Positions 1 through 42,780 of a stretch of 42,780 nt of DNA are shown in pieces. Position 1 is the stretch's first letter. The number at the start of each line of letters is the position of its first letter. The DNA is from a virus. A model generated the notes under the pieces. It did no database searches. It was given only the letters and a program-made list of their open reading frames with translations, and had not been told where the DNA came from. Position numbers and translations under genes: made by a program. The stretch covers positions 1 through 42,780 of IMG/VR virus record IMGVR_UViG_3300045988_170124; one strand, given 5' to 3'.

Positions 1-119
1 GCTTTTTTGTTGCCTTTTTGACTCCTATCAAAAACCGGTCACCTAACCAGAATACCCTGAAGTCATCTTTTATAGTTGACAAGCAGGTTAGTGATGTGGT
101 TTAATTTCGGGTACGCAGA
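1..119. repeat. Terminal direct repeat, copy 1 (identical to 42662..42780)
   Basis: Direct reading: bases 1-119 equal bases 42662-42780. The repeat starts inside the repressor-gene terminator stem and includes the early promoter. Confidence 0.95.
76..105 (+). promoter_or_regulatory. Sigma70-type early promoter (TTGACA - 18 nt - TTTAAT, with TG at -15/-14)
   Basis: TTGACA at 76-81 and TTTAAT at 100-105, preceded by TGg. It lies downstream of the cI terminator and 58 nt upstream of the first early gene. It is flanked by TACCC (53-57) and GGGTA (109-113) and followed by the inverted repeat GATGAGT-N7-ACTCATC (118-138). Confidence 0.55.
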
Positions 120-1219: not shown

Positions 1220-2242
1220 ATGACAAGACTCATCCCCATCACCGGACTCGCCCGTGAAGAATGGCTGCAGCAGCGCACCAAGGGCATCGGCGGCTCTGAC
1301 GTGGCGGCAGCCCTGGGGCTTTCTACTTGGCGCACCCCGGTCGAACTGTGGCAGGAGAAGCGCGGCGAAGGCGAACCGCAGTCGCCCACGAATTCGATGC
1401 ACTTCGGCGCCACCCTGGAAGACATCGTCGCCAAGGAATTTCAGGAACGCACCGGCATGAAGGTTCAGCGCGTGGGCTACACGTTCGTCGACGGTGAAGG
1501 CGACTGGATGCGGGCCAACATCGACCGCGCCGTCGTCATGCCGGAGATTCAGAAGAACGTGCGGCCGGCCAAAAATCCGAAGGAGGGCGAAGCGCTCATC
1601 ACGACGGACGCCATCCTGGAATGCAAGACCGCGTCCGCCTATGCGTCCGGACTCTGGGGCGAATCCCAGGAAGACGAGATCAAGGCTGGAAAGATCGTCA
1701 CCGAACACGAAATCCCGCTGTACTACGAAACGCAGGTTCAGTGGTACATGCGACTCACCGGGGTTCACGTCTGCTACGTAGCCGTCCTCATCGGAGGAAA
1801 CGACTTCCGTATGTACAAGGTCGACCGAAACGAAGACGCCATCAACGCCATCGTTTCCACGCTGCGGGCTTTTTGGTTCGACAACGTCCTCGGAGGCAAG
1901 GCACCGGAACCGAAAGACCTGGACGACATCCGGCACCTGTACCGCCGGGAAGTCGGCCCCATGGTTGAAGCCACTCCGGAAGCGGCCATCGCTATCGGCG
2001 AATACCGCCAGCTGAAGGACAAGGCCACCAGCATCAAAGATCAGATGGAGGCCGTCGCCACCAAGATTGCAGGGTTCATCGGTGAAAACGAAGGAATCCT
2101 CATCGGTGGCGAGAAGGCAGCCACCTTCAAGTCTCAGTCCCGCGCGATGTTCAACGCCAAACAGCTGAAGGCTGATGACCCCGAACTTTGGGCCAAGTAC
2201 GCAGGACGGTCTGAGCCGTCTCGGATTCTCCGGGTGTTTTAG
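1220..2242 (+). CDS. YqaJ-type (lambda Exo-like) recombination exonuclease
   Basis: The N-terminal motif GIGGSDVAAALGLSTWRTPVELWQEKRG is characteristic of YqaJ viral recombinase-domain exonucleases. The gene is immediately followed by RecT. Confidence 0.85.
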   Translation: MTRLIPITGLAREEWLQQRTKGIGGSDVAAALGLSTWRTPVELWQEKRGEGEPQSPTNSMHFGATLEDIVAKEFQERTGMKVQRVGYTFVDGEGDWMRANIDRAVVMPEIQKNVRPAKNPKEGEALITTDAILECKTASAYASGLWGESQEDEIKAGKIVTEHEIPLYYETQVQWYMRLTGVHVCYVAVLIGGNDFRMYKVDRNEDAINAIVSTLRAFWFDNVLGGKAPEPKDLDDIRHLYRREVGPMVEATPEAAIAIGEYRQLKDKATSIKDQMEAVATKIAGFIGENEGILIGGEKAATFKSQSRAMFNAKQLKADDPELWAKYAGRSEPSRILRVF

Positions 2243-2305
2243 TCGCAATCCCTTTTCACTCAGGGCAGGGGCTTCCAGCCCCGCCCATTTTAGAAGGTAC
2301 ACATA

Positions 2306-3166
2306 ATGTCTACTACCGACGCTCTCATTGAAAAAGTCAACCCAGCTGCTGCTAAGAAGGCCGTCGCCGTCAAGGCCACGAAAGAAGGCTCTCTGCTGGA
2401 CGTGGTGACCGGTAAAGCGTTTCAGCAGCAAATGGCCTTGGCCCTGCCGAAGTCCCTCACCCCGGAACGCCTGACACGTATCGTCATGAGCGAATGCCGC
2501 AAGACGCCGGCACTCCTCAATTGTTCCCCGGCGTCGTTCTACGGGTGCGTACTGCAGTGCGCCCAGTTGGGGCTTGAACCCGGCTCGGCCCTGGGCCACT
2601 GCTACCTTCTCCCGTTCGGAAACGGCAAGGCTTCCGATGGCCGCCCGAATGCGCAGCTAATTATCGGCTACCGCGGCATGATCGACCTTGCCCGCCGTTC
2701 CGGACAGATCGTTTCGATCTCCGCTCACTGCGTGCACGAGGCCGACGAGTTCCACTACGAATTCGGCCTGCACGAGGACTGCCGGCACGTCCCTGCAGCT
2801 ATGGCCGACCGAGGCCCCGTGACCCACGTCTACGCCGTGGCCCGTCTTGTCGGCGGCGGCTTCCAGTTTGACGTGATGAGCCGCGCTGAAATCGAAGCCG
2901 TGCGCAACCAGTCGAAAGCCGGCAAGAACGGCCCGTGGGCCACCCACTGGGACGAAATGGCGAAAAAGACTGTGATCCGCCGGTTGTTCAAGCTCCTCCC
3001 CGTCAGCATCGAAGCGCAGCGCGCCGTAGAAGTTGACGAGAAGGCTGACCGCGGCGAAGCCGTCACCGCGTCCGACGTGATCGATGGGATCGCTACCGAG
3101 AAGGGCGTAGGCATCGAGATTCTTCCGGAAGAGGAAGAACCCGCTCCCGTCGCCGAACCTGCCTAA
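2306..3166 (+). CDS. recT: RecT-family single-strand annealing protein
   Basis: RecT-like core (ALPKSLTPERLTRIVMSECRKTPALLNCSPASFYGCVLQCAQLGLEPGSALGHCYLLPFGN) and an acidic C-terminal tail. It is paired with the upstream exonuclease. Confidence 0.85.
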   Translation: MSTTDALIEKVNPAAAKKAVAVKATKEGSLLDVVTGKAFQQQMALALPKSLTPERLTRIVMSECRKTPALLNCSPASFYGCVLQCAQLGLEPGSALGHCYLLPFGNGKASDGRPNAQLIIGYRGMIDLARRSGQIVSISAHCVHEADEFHYEFGLHEDCRHVPAAMADRGPVTHVYAVARLVGGGFQFDVMSRAEIEAVRNQSKAGKNGPWATHWDEMAKKTVIRRLFKLLPVSIEAQRAVEVDEKADRGEAVTASDVIDGIATEKGVGIEILPEEEEPAPVAEPA

Positions 3167-3213
3167 CAACTGAAGAGGCGGGGTACAAGTTGTACCCCAC
3201 CTGAGGAGTAAAG

Positions 3214-3426
3214 ATGCAGACCGTTTGGTACACAGTTAAAGAAGTCGCTGAGATGTTCCGCGTCTGCGAACAGACCGTGCGCAATTGGATCAAAGGAATC
3301 TTTTACGACAAGGGTAAAGCCCGCGCGTACAAAAGCGACATTCGCCTGAAGGCGACCAAGTTTGGGAAAGGCTTTCGCATTGCCGCACCGGACCTTGAGC
3401 GATTCCGGAGAGATCTCGGATGTTGA
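3214..3426 (+). CDS. Excisionase-family / MerR-like helix-turn-helix DNA-binding protein (70 aa)
   Basis: YTVKEVAEMFRVCEQTVRNWIKG ... GKGFRIAAPDLERF matches the HTH_17/excisionase pattern. The sequence alone cannot separate an Xis role from a regulator role. Confidence 0.65.
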   Translation: MQTVWYTVKEVAEMFRVCEQTVRNWIKGIFYDKGKARAYKSDIRLKATKFGKGFRIAAPDLERFRRDLGC

Positions 3427-3452
3427 CAAACGCACAAGAATCCGCGCATAAT
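3423..3452 (+). promoter_or_regulatory. Near-consensus sigma70 promoter (TTGACA - 18 nt - CATAAT) inside the early operon
   Basis: TTGACA at 3423-3428 and CATAAT at 3447-3452. The predicted start, around 3459, coincides with the palindrome cGTTCggttGAACt (3458-3471). Confidence 0.6.
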
Positions 3453-3692
3453 GCCCGCGTTCGGTTGAACTACCGAACCGGGCCTGAGAAACCCGAACGA
3501 ATTGGCGTACAGCCGCCTTACGTTCGTATGAGCGGATTTTTTGTACGTGGACATCACTTCTTGACGAGTGAGGCCAGCGGATACCTTTATGGTGGCCGTT
3601 TCCAATTTGGCGGTTTTCTCAACCCGCTGTGCCTCGCTCACCATCCTGAGAAAATGGCGCGAGGCTCCATCAACGCAAATTGGAGTCTTGCT

Positions 3693-3965
3693 ATGCAAGT
3701 GATCTCTGCTGCTCAAACGCAGCCGTCAACATTCAATCTCCCGTTCGCCATCACGGCGCTCATCAAACACCAGCTGACCTCCGGCGAAGCCAAGGACTAC
3801 GCGATTATGTCGTGTTCAGAAGCTAAGAACATCCTCATCGCCGCAGCCGACTCGGCCGAAAGCGATAGCCAGATGCTTTCCACCGCCGGGCTTCTCAGCG
3901 TCATCAAATCCGCCGCATCGATACTCGAATGCGCCGAACTCCTCGTTAATGAGACGGAGAAATGA
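3693..3965 (+). CDS. Hypothetical protein (90 aa); shortened version of track ORF 3420..3965
   Basis: TGGAG lies 7 nt upstream of ATG 3693. Third-position GC is mixed before 3693 and clearly GC-rich after it. The stop overlaps the next ATG as ATGA. Confidence 0.5.
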   Translation: MQVISAAQTQPSTFNLPFAITALIKHQLTSGEAKDYAIMSCSEAKNILIAAADSAESDSQMLSTAGLLSVIKSAASILECAELLVNETEK

Positions 3966-4765
3966 AAATGACAAACGAACTCATCACCCTGAAAGACGGG
4001 CAAGCCGTCACCGACACCTACACTATCTCAGTCGGCGTCAATTACCCGCATAAGAATGTAATCGCCCTTTGCCGCAAGCACGTTGAAAGTCTTAAGAAAT
4101 TCGGAAGGGTAGAATTTATTATTCAACCCTTTGAGACCACCGGCGGTACCCAAAGACGCGAAGTTGCTCTTCTCAACGAGGATCAGGCATTGCTCTTAAT
4201 GTCCCTCATGCAGAACAACGAGACCGTTGTAGCTTTCAAGGTTCGTTTAATTCAAGCCTTTCGGAATTGCCGCGATGAACTCACCAAGGTAAAAGCGGCC
4301 CCCGCGGTTCAGTCAACACCTGCCTCCCCGGTGGATCAAACCGTTAGCGGCATCCTGTGCGTAGCGACGTACATTTCGCAGAAACACGGCGTGCCTCAAG
4401 GCCGCGCAACGGCTCACGCGTTAGCCGAGATTGAAGAGAACACCGGGATCAATATGGAAAAGATGCGCGCCCTGATTCCGGCCACGCCGACGGAAGAAGT
4501 TCGGATGTTCAATCCAACCTACATCGGCAAGCGGCTGACCCCACAGAAGTCGGCAGTCGCAGTAAATAACCTTTTGGCAGGCCTGGAGTATCAGAAGAAG
4601 GTCAACGGCGAATGGCAATTAACCGAAAAGGCTGAAGGCTTCGGCGAGAACCGTCCATTCGAAAACCACGGGCACAGCGGCTTTCAAATTCAGTGGGGCG
4701 AAAACATTATTGAAGTGCTTCAGGCCGCACTTGATTCAGAACCCAAACAAGGAGAATTAGTATGA
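3962..4765 (+). CDS. Rha-family phage regulatory protein with KilAC-like C-terminal domain (antirepressor-type architecture)
   Basis: The N-terminal segment VTDTYTISVGVNYPHKNVIALCRKHVESLKKFGRVEFIIQPFETTGGTQRREVALLNEDQALLLMSLMQN matches the Phage_pRha pattern. The C-terminal half resembles antirepressor KilAC domains. Confidence 0.8.
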   Translation: MKMTNELITLKDGQAVTDTYTISVGVNYPHKNVIALCRKHVESLKKFGRVEFIIQPFETTGGTQRREVALLNEDQALLLMSLMQNNETVVAFKVRLIQAFRNCRDELTKVKAAPAVQSTPASPVDQTVSGILCVATYISQKHGVPQGRATAHALAEIEENTGINMEKMRALIPATPTEEVRMFNPTYIGKRLTPQKSAVAVNNLLAGLEYQKKVNGEWQLTEKAEGFGENRPFENHGHSGFQIQWGENIIEVLQAALDSEPKQGELV

Positions 4766-5145
4766 CAAAACTCGCAAAATACTACGGCCACAAGGGCCGT
4801 ACCGAAATCACGAACGCCAAATTCGGCACGTGGTACCCGCTGGATTACACGCCCAAAATCGAAAATTACCTCGACTTTGAGGACGGAGTCGGTGCAATGG
4901 TTTCCATCGTGTGCATCGGTGACGATGGAAAATCCTACGACGCCTACACTGCCGACGCCTTTTGGAAAATAAACCGGGACAAGTGCGGCGACTATGAAAC
5001 CGAAGAACCGTACCTCGAAATCTGCGAAGACGACCGAAACTGTCTGACCAGAGATCAGGAGCTTATGCACACACTCGCCACCGGATGGATGCCATACCCG
5101 CGCCTCCCGTTGCATAAAGCCAAGAAGCCAATAAAAGTCGCGTAA
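4762..5145 (+). CDS. Hypothetical protein (127 aa)
   Basis: AAGGAGA RBS and an ATGA overlap with the upstream gene. No family recognised. Confidence 0.65.
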   Translation: MTKLAKYYGHKGRTEITNAKFGTWYPLDYTPKIENYLDFEDGVGAMVSIVCIGDDGKSYDAYTADAFWKINRDKCGDYETEEPYLEICEDDRNCLTRDQELMHTLATGWMPYPRLPLHKAKKPIKVA

Positions 5146-5172
5146 CCATCTTCGCGGCGTCACGAAAATGGT

Positions 5173-5204
5173 CCCCGCCATCCGAGAGGGTGGAGGGGAT
5201 TTTC
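5173..5204. terminator. Bidirectional intrinsic terminator between convergent operons
   Basis: CCCCGCCATC / GGTGGAGGGG stem (10 bp, one mismatch, one G-U) at 5173-5198. It is followed by ATTTTCT on the + strand and by ACCATTTTCG on the - strand. Confidence 0.6.
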
Positions 5205-41946: not shown

Positions 41947-42618
41947 ATGGTTGATGATGAACTGACAGCTCGTCGCCGGGTTAATCTGCGACGTATCGCC
42001 GATGAGTTAGGTGGAGCCGCTGCTGTTGCCAGGAAGACTCAAAAGAGCGTCCAACAAATAAGCAGTATGCTCAACGGCACCAAGTCCTTTGGCTCAAAGA
42101 TCGCTCGTGACATAGAACCTAAACTGGGGCTTCCCCTGCAAAGCCTGGATAAGGAAGCGCCAAATTTTGTAGTTGCAGCGGAAACGCCTGAAGCTACGGG
42201 GTACGTGCGCATTACAGCGCTTGAGGCGCGTAAAGAGTACAACCTGATGCGCATTCAGGAATTGAGCAAAATCAGGCTGATGGAGTGCAAAGAAGATTGG
42301 CTGTACGAACAAGCTCTTTCCACATCCAAGCCCAGTGCGCTAAAGCTATTCTCTGCGCCATCGGACAACATGGAGCCAGAAATTCTCCAAGGCGGATCAG
42401 TCGTCGTTGACATCTCGCAAAACACTTTCACCGCCAACGGCATATACGCCATGACGTATCAGGGTTCGGCATTCATATATCGGATACAGATGAACCCTGA
42501 CGGATCAGTATATTTTTTGTCGGATAATCCAAAATATGAAAAGATGGTAGTGAAGGACACGTCCAACATCGTGATAGTTGGACGGTGTGTCGGCTGCTGT
42601 AACACGCACTCGCTCTAA
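41947..42618 (+). CDS. CI-type repressor: N-terminal HTH + C-terminal S24 (LexA/CI) fold with substituted catalytic dyad
   Basis: N-terminal HTH: LRRIADELGGAAAVARKTQKSVQQISSMLNG. The C-terminal region aligns by eye to lambda CI and LexA: SDNMEP against G(D/N)SM(T/E)P, AFIYRI against FTFKKL/VTVKRL, and FLSDNPKYE against FLQPLNPQYP. Confidence 0.8.
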   Translation: MVDDELTARRRVNLRRIADELGGAAAVARKTQKSVQQISSMLNGTKSFGSKIARDIEPKLGLPLQSLDKEAPNFVVAAETPEATGYVRITALEARKEYNLMRIQELSKIRLMECKEDWLYEQALSTSKPSALKLFSAPSDNMEPEILQGGSVVVDISQNTFTANGIYAMTYQGSAFIYRIQMNPDGSVYFLSDNPKYEKMVVKDTSNIVIVGRCVGCCNTHSL

Positions 42619-42645: not shown

Positions 42646-42670
42646 AGCCCGCGCACTGCGGGCTTTTTTG
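42646..42670 (+). terminator. Intrinsic terminator after the repressor gene
   Basis: AGCCCGC-gcact-GCGGGCT followed by TTTTTTG. The terminal repeat begins inside the 3' stem. Confidence 0.8.
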
Positions 42671-42780
42671 TTGCCTTTTTGACTCCTATCAAAAACCGGT
42701 CACCTAACCAGAATACCCTGAAGTCATCTTTTATAGTTGACAAGCAGGTTAGTGATGTGGTTTAATTTCGGGTACGCAGA
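42662..42780. repeat. Terminal direct repeat, copy 2 (identical to 1..119)
   Basis: Direct reading; see copy 1. Confidence 0.95.

Follow-up and report, generated by a model that had tools for sequence, protein, structure and literature searches.

The C4 RNA of phages P1 and P7 works through short complementary segments, with a1 and b1 upstream of the RNA, a' and b' inside it, and a2 and b2 downstream; b' occludes the ribosome-binding site and a' adds specificity (PMC5320573; for the mechanism, see also PMC8201110). In Gifsy-1, a fraction of IsrK transcription continues past the terminator of the short RNA, and the resulting long RNA is translationally silent (PMC4825925). In trans, the short form of IsrK switches on translation of a small ORF upstream of the antirepressor-like gene anrP, and anrP is expressed by translational coupling to this ORF (PMC4825925). 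Downstream of IsrK is STnc1160, a stable RNA produced by processing, and both Hfq binding and the activation of downstream translation in trans are experimental properties of IsrK (PMC4825925). For the small ORF, orf45, the nucleotides are conserved and the amino acids are variable according to a review (PMC12197685).

The DNA analysed here is IMG/VR virus record IMGVR_UViG_3300045988_170124, positions 1 to 42,780 (42,780 nt; "the window"). Positions 3423-3692 very probably form a cassette of the immI type in which two RNAs control an antirepressor operon, a short decoy RNA and a C4-type antisense RNA. The locus is a diverged, sub-threshold copy of the already catalogued C4/IsrK antirepressor-control family, carried by phages of gut Sutterellaceae.

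Materials and methods

The window was scanned with Rfam at default settings, and positions 3150-4000 were scanned with Rfam by E-value. Homologs of the 90-aa protein encoded downstream of the leader (ORF90) were found 13 times, all in metagenomic sequence, and their contigs shared the order HTH_17 gene, gap of ~270 nt, ORF90, and antirepressor. Loci L002-L006 were retrieved via the ORF90 protein, independently of the promoter. A promoter-based pattern returned 26 loci (1 genome, 12 metagenome contigs, and 13 IMG/VR viral contigs including L001), 25 of them new; L007-L031 were thus retrieved with the promoter pattern, and the invariance of the promoter in these loci is by construction. Several of the 12 metagenome contigs were titled human gut metagenome. 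The comparison set comprised 31 related gut-phage or prophage loci with 23 distinct leader variants. RNAalifold on MAFFT alignments gave poor consensus structures, the helices being out of register between clades; structures were based on single-sequence folds and Rfam alignments.

Results

The ends of the window repeat each other (1-119 = 42662-42780), which indicates a phage genome assembled as a circle. An integrase gene was present, and a gene scan found no tRNA or tmRNA genes. The operon headed by the PL-like promoter extends into the leader region (Table 1). In a blastn search of positions 2300-5200 against phage records, the RecT gene was the sole match, and a protein-pattern scan of viral contigs returned no relatives of the Rha protein. 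The only genome with the module was that of Duodenibacillus massiliensis (Sutterellaceae, Betaproteobacteria), which carries it in the L007 prophage.

Table 1 Predicted features of the leader and its surroundings, in coordinates of the window
Feature	Coordinates	Strand	Details
PL-like promoter	76-105		11/12 sigma-70 match; second copy at 42737 in the terminal repeat
YqaJ exonuclease gene	1220-2242	+	
RecT gene	2306-3166	+	
HTH_17 (excisionase-like) gene	3214-3426	+	70 aa; TGA stop 3424-3426
Sigma-70-type promoter	3423-3452	+	TTGACA 3423-3428, 18-nt spacer, CATAAT 3447-3452; 11/12 positions
Untranslated leader (gap)	3427-3692	+	266 nt; between HTH_17 gene and ORF90
isrK-like short RNA	3459-3542	+	Rfam isrK RF01394; C4 target mimics a1 and b1
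Short-RNA hairpin 1	3459-3478	+	7 bp GUUCGGU/ACCGAAC, 3459-3465 with 3472-3478
Short-RNA hairpin 2	3479-3495	+	a1 (UGAGAAA, 3485-3491) in the loop
b1 mimic	3498-3505	+	CGAAUUGG; complementarity to b'
Terminator hairpin and U6 tract	3513-3535, 3537-3542	+	called terminator-like
C4-type antisense RNA	3560-3645	+	Rfam C4 RF01695
C4 outer stem	3566-3580 with 3624-3639	+	encloses two hairpins
C4 hairpin 1	3582-3594	+	
C4 hairpin 2	3595-3614	+	
b' antisense loop	3600-3609	+	UUCCAAUUUG; loop of C4 hairpin 2
a' segment	3613-3621	+	GUUUUCUCA; single-stranded 3' junction
a2 target	3647-3655	+	UGAGAAAAU; complementary to a'
b2 target	3676-3685	+	CAAAUUGGAG; complementary to b'; contains Shine-Dalgarno GGAG 3682-3685 of ORF90
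ORF90	3693-3965	+	90 aa; ATG 3693; first gene of the controlled operon
Rha-domain antirepressor-like gene	3962-4765	+	start overlaps ORF90 stop (ATGA)
CI gene	41947-42618		

ORF90 is a conserved small protein with three predicted helices (AF2 mean pLDDT 70.6). It matched no Pfam or PHROG family, a fold search of the viral library returned only its own relative, and similarity to P1 Icd and Gifsy-1 orf45 was not detectable, with only position and coupling being alike. The protein encoded by the gene that follows matched Pfam Phage_pRha and anti-repressor families of PHROG. The initial annotation had described the leader as lying ahead of a Rha/KilAC antirepressor operon. The Rha domain and the control of an antirepressor were borne out, a KilAC domain was not detectable in this protein, and the 90-aa gene lies between the leader and the antirepressor gene of the same operon. 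The junction of the two genes, GAGAAATGAAAATGAC, is conserved in nearly all loci, and its ATGA overlap suggests that translation of the Rha gene is coupled to that of ORF90. Among the loci, the domains of the antirepressor occur in different combinations (Bro-N, Rha, or AntA with KilAC; Rha with ORF11CD3); in the window, Rha is joined to a C-terminal part without an assigned domain.

The phage CI was aligned with LexA and lambda CI (18-20% identity). It has Asn at the position of the catalytic Ser and Arg at that of the catalytic Lys, and no Ala-Gly, in agreement with the earlier proposal of a non-cleavable CI; from this alignment the repressor appears unable to self-cleave. A PDB sequence search with CI added no useful information.

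At default settings, Rfam reported nothing for the window as a whole, because the two elements found in the E-value scan score below the gathering thresholds. A full-length match to C4 (model positions 1-87) reached 36.9 bits (E = 3e-5) against a gathering score of 45 bits, and a full-length match to isrK reached 25 bits (E = 0.0037) against a gathering score of 50 bits. In the sister loci, isrK scores ranged from 22.5 to 39.4 bits, so that none in the phage group reaches the threshold. The related family c4-a1b1 (RF03163, gathering score 46.7) was not reported in the window at E <= 10 or in the sister loci at E <= 1.

The predicted short RNA starts at +1 and lies directly upstream of the C4 element, with an a1 loop followed by b1 and an intrinsic terminator, a layout that is the same as that of the above-threshold isrK in the Stx2a phage F723. 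The start near 3459 proposed in the initial annotation falls on the first position of the isrK model, and the 7-bp hairpin, the U6 tract after further stems, and a short RNA of about 84 nt, which were also proposed there, correspond to elements of this 84-nt terminated isrK-like RNA. The block GCGGATTTTTTGT at the terminator was invariant in all 23 leader variants.

Both the Rfam alignment and minimum-energy folds gave the C4 element its typical fold, with a long outer stem, two hairpins, the b' loop, and the a' junction. The same transcript carries its targets a2 and b2 further downstream, where b2 extends over the ribosome-binding site, and an antirepressor operon follows (Rha domain, PHROG anti-repressor families). 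In the window, 10 bp can form between b' and b2, 9 bp between a' and a2, 8 bp between b' and b1, and 7 bp between a' and a1. The b2 target spans -17 to -8 relative to the ATG of ORF90, and no other b2-like target was found in the window. The structured untranslated leader described earlier was confirmed as such, with its main element, the C4-type RNA and its targets, having been missed. The leader folds better than shuffled sequences (z = -5.2), as does the opposite strand (z = -5.3), which makes the z-score uninformative with regard to strand. A riboswitch or ligand-sensing attenuator was considered as a candidate and rejected, as no such Rfam match was found and the variable loops pair with each other.

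C4 scores in the sister loci were 70.5 (L007), 67.7 (L009), 67.3 (L029), 67.0 (L003), 64.2 (L004), 45.3 (L010), 42.9 (L012), and 34.0 bits (L002). Syntenic copies behind the same promoter thus reach 45.3-70.5 bits and bridge the window copy to RF01695. Judged by this sequence comparison, the window C4 has diverged within a group in which the remaining copies are unambiguously C4 RNAs. Folded individually, 14 distinct C4 sequences all gave an outer stem of 15-16 bp with two hairpins and an unpaired a', and the outer stem contains standard pairs only, though most of its positions differ between clades.

The covariation analysis of homologous leaders proposed in the initial annotation was carried out on the 23 variants, and the a and b pairings were found to be kept by matched changes. 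There are 11 types of b and 3 types of a, and the three copies of each change together. Because the columns of b' and b2 are out of register between clades in alignment A2, these segments were scored by per-sequence duplex energies: the cognate b'-b2 duplex was the best partner in 16/16 cases, with a mean of -13.3 vs -5.6 kcal/mol, and the cognate b'-b1 duplex was best in 15/16. The cognate a' pairings were best in 16/16. For both a'-a2 and a1-a' in alignment A2, four pairs had changed on both sides and none on one side only, and the six core pairs were paired in 23/23 rows. The observed level of a-box covariation was reached by 0/500 shuffles, a count that is not a probability, since the 23 variants are related and fall into few clades; sliding the partner by 1-3 columns destroyed the signal. 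In every variant, b2 lies 17-19 nt ahead of the ATG and over GGAG.

Discussion

Under the reading preferred here, transcription from the promoter at 3423-3452 would start at ~3459. A share of the transcripts would end at this weak terminator with its U6 tract, giving the isrK-like RNA with a1 and b1, and those that read through would contain the C4-type RNA, a2, b2, ORF90, and the Rha gene. By analogy with P1/P7 C4, the C4 RNA would be cut out of this precursor, and b' would then pair with b2 over the Shine-Dalgarno sequence of ORF90 and a' with a2, so that translation of ORF90 is blocked. Synthesis of the antirepressor would be blocked together with that of ORF90 because of the ATGA coupling, again as in P1/P7. 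By analogy with Gifsy-1 IsrK, the short a1/b1 RNA, or the same segment in cis, would compete for a' and b' and relieve the block, and the balance between termination and read-through would decide antirepressor production. From these analogies we infer the processing of C4, the repression of ORF90 and the antirepressor, and the relief by the a1/b1 RNA; the transcript ends, the involvement of RNase P in the processing, and the translational level of the repression are likewise predictions. Since CI appears unable to self-cleave, the cassette probably gates the induction of the prophage and sets a second immunity specificity, one that is based on RNA; the replaced catalytic Ser and Lys and the missing Ala-Gly would plausibly make the antirepressor the only induction route.

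The C4-like RNA might instead act as in phage P4, mainly by promoting termination at the U6 tract through pairing with a1/b1 (and a2/b2) in the nascent transcript. The b1 segment overlaps the 5' arm of a small GGCG/CGCC hairpin, some of whose bases also belong to the 5' arm of the long terminator stem, and when a1 and b1 were barred from pairing in silico, the 3' end refolded into the long CCGCC...GCGG hairpin adjacent to the U6 tract in 8/11 lineages. IsrK is also structurally homologous to SeqA of P4, and STnc1160, which lies downstream of it, is similar to CI RNA (PMC4825925). However, the unconstrained fold has a hairpin before the U6 tract as well, which leaves no clean on/off alternative, the exact placement of b2 on the Shine-Dalgarno sequence in every variant points to translation control, and thermodynamic prediction is the one source of evidence for the P4-type mode. 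As the main mode of action it is rather unlikely, and it may coexist with the translational control described above.

With regard to the coding status of the leader, GC3 is 0.52 in 3420-3692, compared with 0.68 in ORF90 and 0.75 in the RecT gene. Substitutions by codon position in the leader (8, 5, 2 and 6, 8, 4) have no third-position bias, whereas those in ORF90 (7, 3, 19; 11, 7, 21; 4, 5, 12) have a clear one. These values agree with the earlier proposal that the region before ATG 3693 is non-coding. The frame of ORF90 is nevertheless open back to ATG 3420 in 22/23 variants, the exception being L012 with an in-frame TAA, and the lengths of the leaders differ by multiples of three. In dinucleotide shuffles, the probability of a stop-free frame in the leader was 0.05-0.14 per sequence. 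The open frame is taken as a weak signal and not a finding.

A dual use of the leader would account for the 22/23 open frames and the multiple-of-three lengths despite the unconserved peptide. Transcripts from its own promoter would then yield the two regulatory RNAs, and on early-operon transcripts the leader would be translated in the frame of ORF90. Ribosomes ending at the TGA of the HTH_17 gene would restart at ATG 3420 or TTG 3423, and their passage through the leader would unfold C4 and bypass the block at b2, so that, with the early operon active, the RNA immunity would no longer affect antirepressor synthesis. This dual use is considered improbable.

It is very improbable that the 181-aa ORF at 3420-3965 is a real protein with the leader as its N-terminal coding half, as in public annotation. 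Besides the open frame and the multiples of three, the sole fold-search match to the ORF90 model, UniProt A0A8S5QRL1, is also 181 aa long. The substitution pattern and GC3 speak against it, as does the predicted peptide, which is unconserved between clades and locally frameshifted by indels. The frame is interrupted in L012, and ATG 3420 precedes the promoter and lacks a Shine-Dalgarno sequence of its own. RNAs of this kind are also generally poor in stop triplets, and the Stx-phage leader likewise has one open frame. A coding function for the leader was accordingly rejected on the absent third-position bias, the low GC3, and the unconserved peptide.

The near-consensus promoter reported in the initial annotation is present and strong. 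Sigma-70 sites matching at 11/12 positions occur at two distinct places in the whole window, vs 0.24 expected from first-order Markov simulations. The -35 hexamer of the promoter at 3423-3452 contains the TGA stop of the HTH_17 gene, and this promoter is identical in L002-L006. The palindrome GTTC-N4-GAAC, GTTCGGTTGAAC, was correctly located at 3459-3470, and the annotation had read it as a LexA operator in a host-repressor-gated induction circuit. An operator for host LexA or for the phage CI, in the manner of Gifsy or 186 Tum, would fit its placement at +1, the number of such palindromes in the window (4 vs 0.88 expected), and a CI that looks non-cleavable, for which an outside signal must reach the antirepressor. 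By their coordinates, however, the other three palindromes lie inside long ORFs, and the sequence was kept in only 13/23 variants, whereas the RNA hairpin was kept in 23/23. In L002 (GUCCGAU/AUCGGAC), the palindrome is broken and the stem is kept by two compensatory changes; in L008 (GUUCGAU/AUCGAAC), the stem is likewise kept through compensatory change; and 10/23 variants have an unrelated stem, GCCUC...GAGGC, without GTTC or GAAC. Because stems are compensated or replaced in this way across the variants, selection acts on RNA pairing and not on a DNA half-site, and GTTC-N4-GAAC simply represents the 5' arm of hairpin 1 in the short RNA together with its loop.

The usual SOS box of Betaproteobacteria, the class of the sole genome match, is CTGT-N8-ACAG (PMC6595937). 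This motif, which is usual for the class and may not be that of the host itself, was not found with <=1 mismatch near 3400-3700. The whole window held no exact match, and one-mismatch matches were at chance expectation. In a window search, 12-mers of the promoter region did not recur near CI or other promoters, even with one mismatch. A LexA or CI operator is therefore very improbable, and the host-repressor-gated circuit was abandoned, as the palindrome is not conserved as DNA and a LexA box is missing near the promoter.

A regulatory RNA pair is thus missed in this phage group at default Rfam thresholds, and its recognition changes the reading of the lysis-lysogeny circuit. Public annotation appears to treat the leader as protein, a related UniProt entry having 181 aa, the length of the extended ORF. 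Given that CI appears unable to self-cleave, induction would run via an antirepressor gated by RNA-RNA pairing and not via LexA. The three-way matching of decoy, antisense, and target indicates that selection acts on a1/b1 as it does on the real targets, and the 11 b and 3 a types represent ready-made orthogonal RNA-target pairs. A conserved cassette of RNA and ORF90 would drive interchangeable antirepressors. As the mechanism is already known from P1 and Gifsy, the gain is incremental.

Comparison with known systems

The P4 immunity region (seqA, CI RNA, seqC) resembles the window in that a processed leader RNA pairs with repeats up- and downstream. The CA RNA of phage N15, a processed leader RNA that pairs with flanking repeats, is grouped with P4 immunity. 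P4 CI works by ending transcription prematurely, and the genes under its control serve replication, whereas the window has an antirepressor, with the termination mode only possible.

The isrK-orf45-anrP region of Gifsy-1 (Salmonella) shares with the window the order of promoter, short terminated RNA, read-through leader, small ORF, and antirepressor-like gene. In Gifsy-1, a stable RNA is processed from the read-through leader, and its counterpart in the window is the predicted C4-type RNA. In both, the short RNA shows complementarity to the RNA downstream of it, and the structured RNA is crossed by a reading frame whose amino acids are not conserved. Unlike in Gifsy-1, the isrK match is weak (25 bits), the small ORF is a conserved 90-aa gene that starts after C4 and not a 45-codon frame inside, and no link to an AntQ-type antiterminator was seen in the window.

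In the immI region of P1/P7 (c4, icd, ant), as in the window, the antisense RNA is co-transcribed with its own target from one promoter. The three-helix shape with a' and b' is common to both (PMC5320573, PMC8201110), and both have a1/b1 upstream and a2/b2 downstream, with b2 over the ribosome-binding site. A small ORF that lies between the RNA and the antirepressor gene overlaps the latter, and ORF90 holds the position of icd. The window differs in that its outer stem begins with GAG, where GG(W) is described at the RNase P site, in that a1/b1 are placed in a separately terminated short RNA, and in that its antirepressor is of the Rha type and ORF90 is without similarity to Icd. The likely host of the window phage is in Sutterellaceae, and its integrase gene sets the phage apart from P1, which persists as a plasmid (PMC8201110).

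The L007 leader matched E. coli Stx-converting phages by blastn. One of these, Stx2a_F723 (AP012533.1), scored 78.6 bits with isrK, 50.1 bits with c4-a1b1 (RF03163, described as "a1, b1 targets of C4 antisense RNA"), and 74.3 bits with C4. Downstream are an a2 segment, GAUUGGCGU, a b2 segment over the Shine-Dalgarno sequence, AGAAAAAGGA, and an annotated antirepressor gene. In this phage, b2 masks the antirepressor's own ribosome-binding site without an intervening small gene, and the a box UUGGCGU/ACGCCAA is that of one clade in the phage group of the window, the window itself having UGAGAAA. Its promoter, TTGACG-17-TATATT, has the stop of the upstream gene inside the -35 hexamer, as in the window, and promoter, isrK with a1/b1, terminator, C4, a2, b2 over the Shine-Dalgarno sequence, and antirepressor follow in identical order and spacing.

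The cassette analyzed here consists of a leader with two regulatory RNAs, a short isrK-like RNA and a C4-type antisense RNA, and of ORF90; an antirepressor gene follows. The coordinates are listed in the table below.

Coordinates of the cassette and associated features
Feature	Position	Remark
Terminal repeats	1-119, 42662-42780	Repeats of each other
Promoter TTGACA-18-TTTAAT	76-105	Just past the CI terminator
Extended ORF	3420-3965	181 aa
Upstream-gene stop TGA	3424-3426	Within the -35 hexamer TTGACA
Leader	3427-3692	
Short isrK-like RNA	3459-3542	
Refolding 3' end	3498-3542	CCGCC...GCGG hairpin in silico
Terminator tract U6	3537-3542	
C4-type antisense RNA	3560-3645	
ORF90	3693-3965	90 aa
Conserved junction	3950-3975	
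Antirepressor gene	3962-4765	Rha domain
CI repressor	41947-42618	Peptidase_S24 domain

The junction at which the ORF90 stop and the antirepressor start overlap (GAGAAATGAAAATGAC) is conserved in the window and nearly all related loci, as are the first antirepressor codons (MKMT). Beyond MKMT, antirepressor domains are exchanged between loci, the combinations being Bro-N+KilAC, Rha+KilAC, AntA+KilAC, Rha+ORF11CD3, and Rha with an unknown domain. The RNAs and ORF90 behave together as a portable control cassette. For ORF90, structure prediction gives a small protein of three helices (mean pLDDT, 70.6), and its 18 C-terminal residues are invariant among homologs. No sequence family was found for it, and the viral fold search matched the ORF90 model only to its own relative, UniProt A0A8S5QRL1 (Myoviridae sp. 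ctRTx89; 96% identity). As that protein has the length of the extended ORF (181 aa), both regulatory RNAs appear to have been taken as coding sequence in the public gene call.

The ORF90 frame is free of stops from ATG 3420 to ATG 3693 in 22 of the 23 distinct leader variants, and length differences among the variants are multiples of three. Third-position substitution bias was absent from this frame over 3420-3692, and the peptide encoded there was not conserved among the variants. The open frame may permit upstream-operon transcripts to be translated across the leader; alternatively, it may stem from a scarcity of stop triplets in these RNAs.

The repeated window ends indicate that the contig is a circular assembly. 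The promoter at its left end, the only 11/12 promoter match in the window besides the leader promoter, is probably the early-left promoter feeding the operon with the RNA-ORF90 cassette. In an alignment of the phage CI with LexA and lambda CI, the catalytic Ser is replaced by Asn (SDNM) and the catalytic Lys by Arg, and the phage protein lacks an Ala-Gly cleavage site. Self-cleavage of this CI is unlikely. At the leader promoter, the upstream-gene stop lies within the -35 hexamer, and likewise in E. coli Stx2a phage F723 (L032, 1643-1645; TTGACG), such tight packing being common to two distant phage groups.

When pairing of the C4 target mimics a1 and b1 was barred in silico, the short-RNA 3' end formed a long hairpin adjoining U6 in 8 of 11 lineages, a hint that C4 binding could favor termination, as in satellite phage P4. 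The window clade has UGAGAAA in place of a box UUGGCGU (a', ACGCCAA), which was found in L003, L004, L007, L009, L020, L029, and L032. UUGGCGU thus occurs both in Stx phages of E. coli (L032) and in a single clade of Sutterellaceae-associated phages, whereas the b boxes differ.
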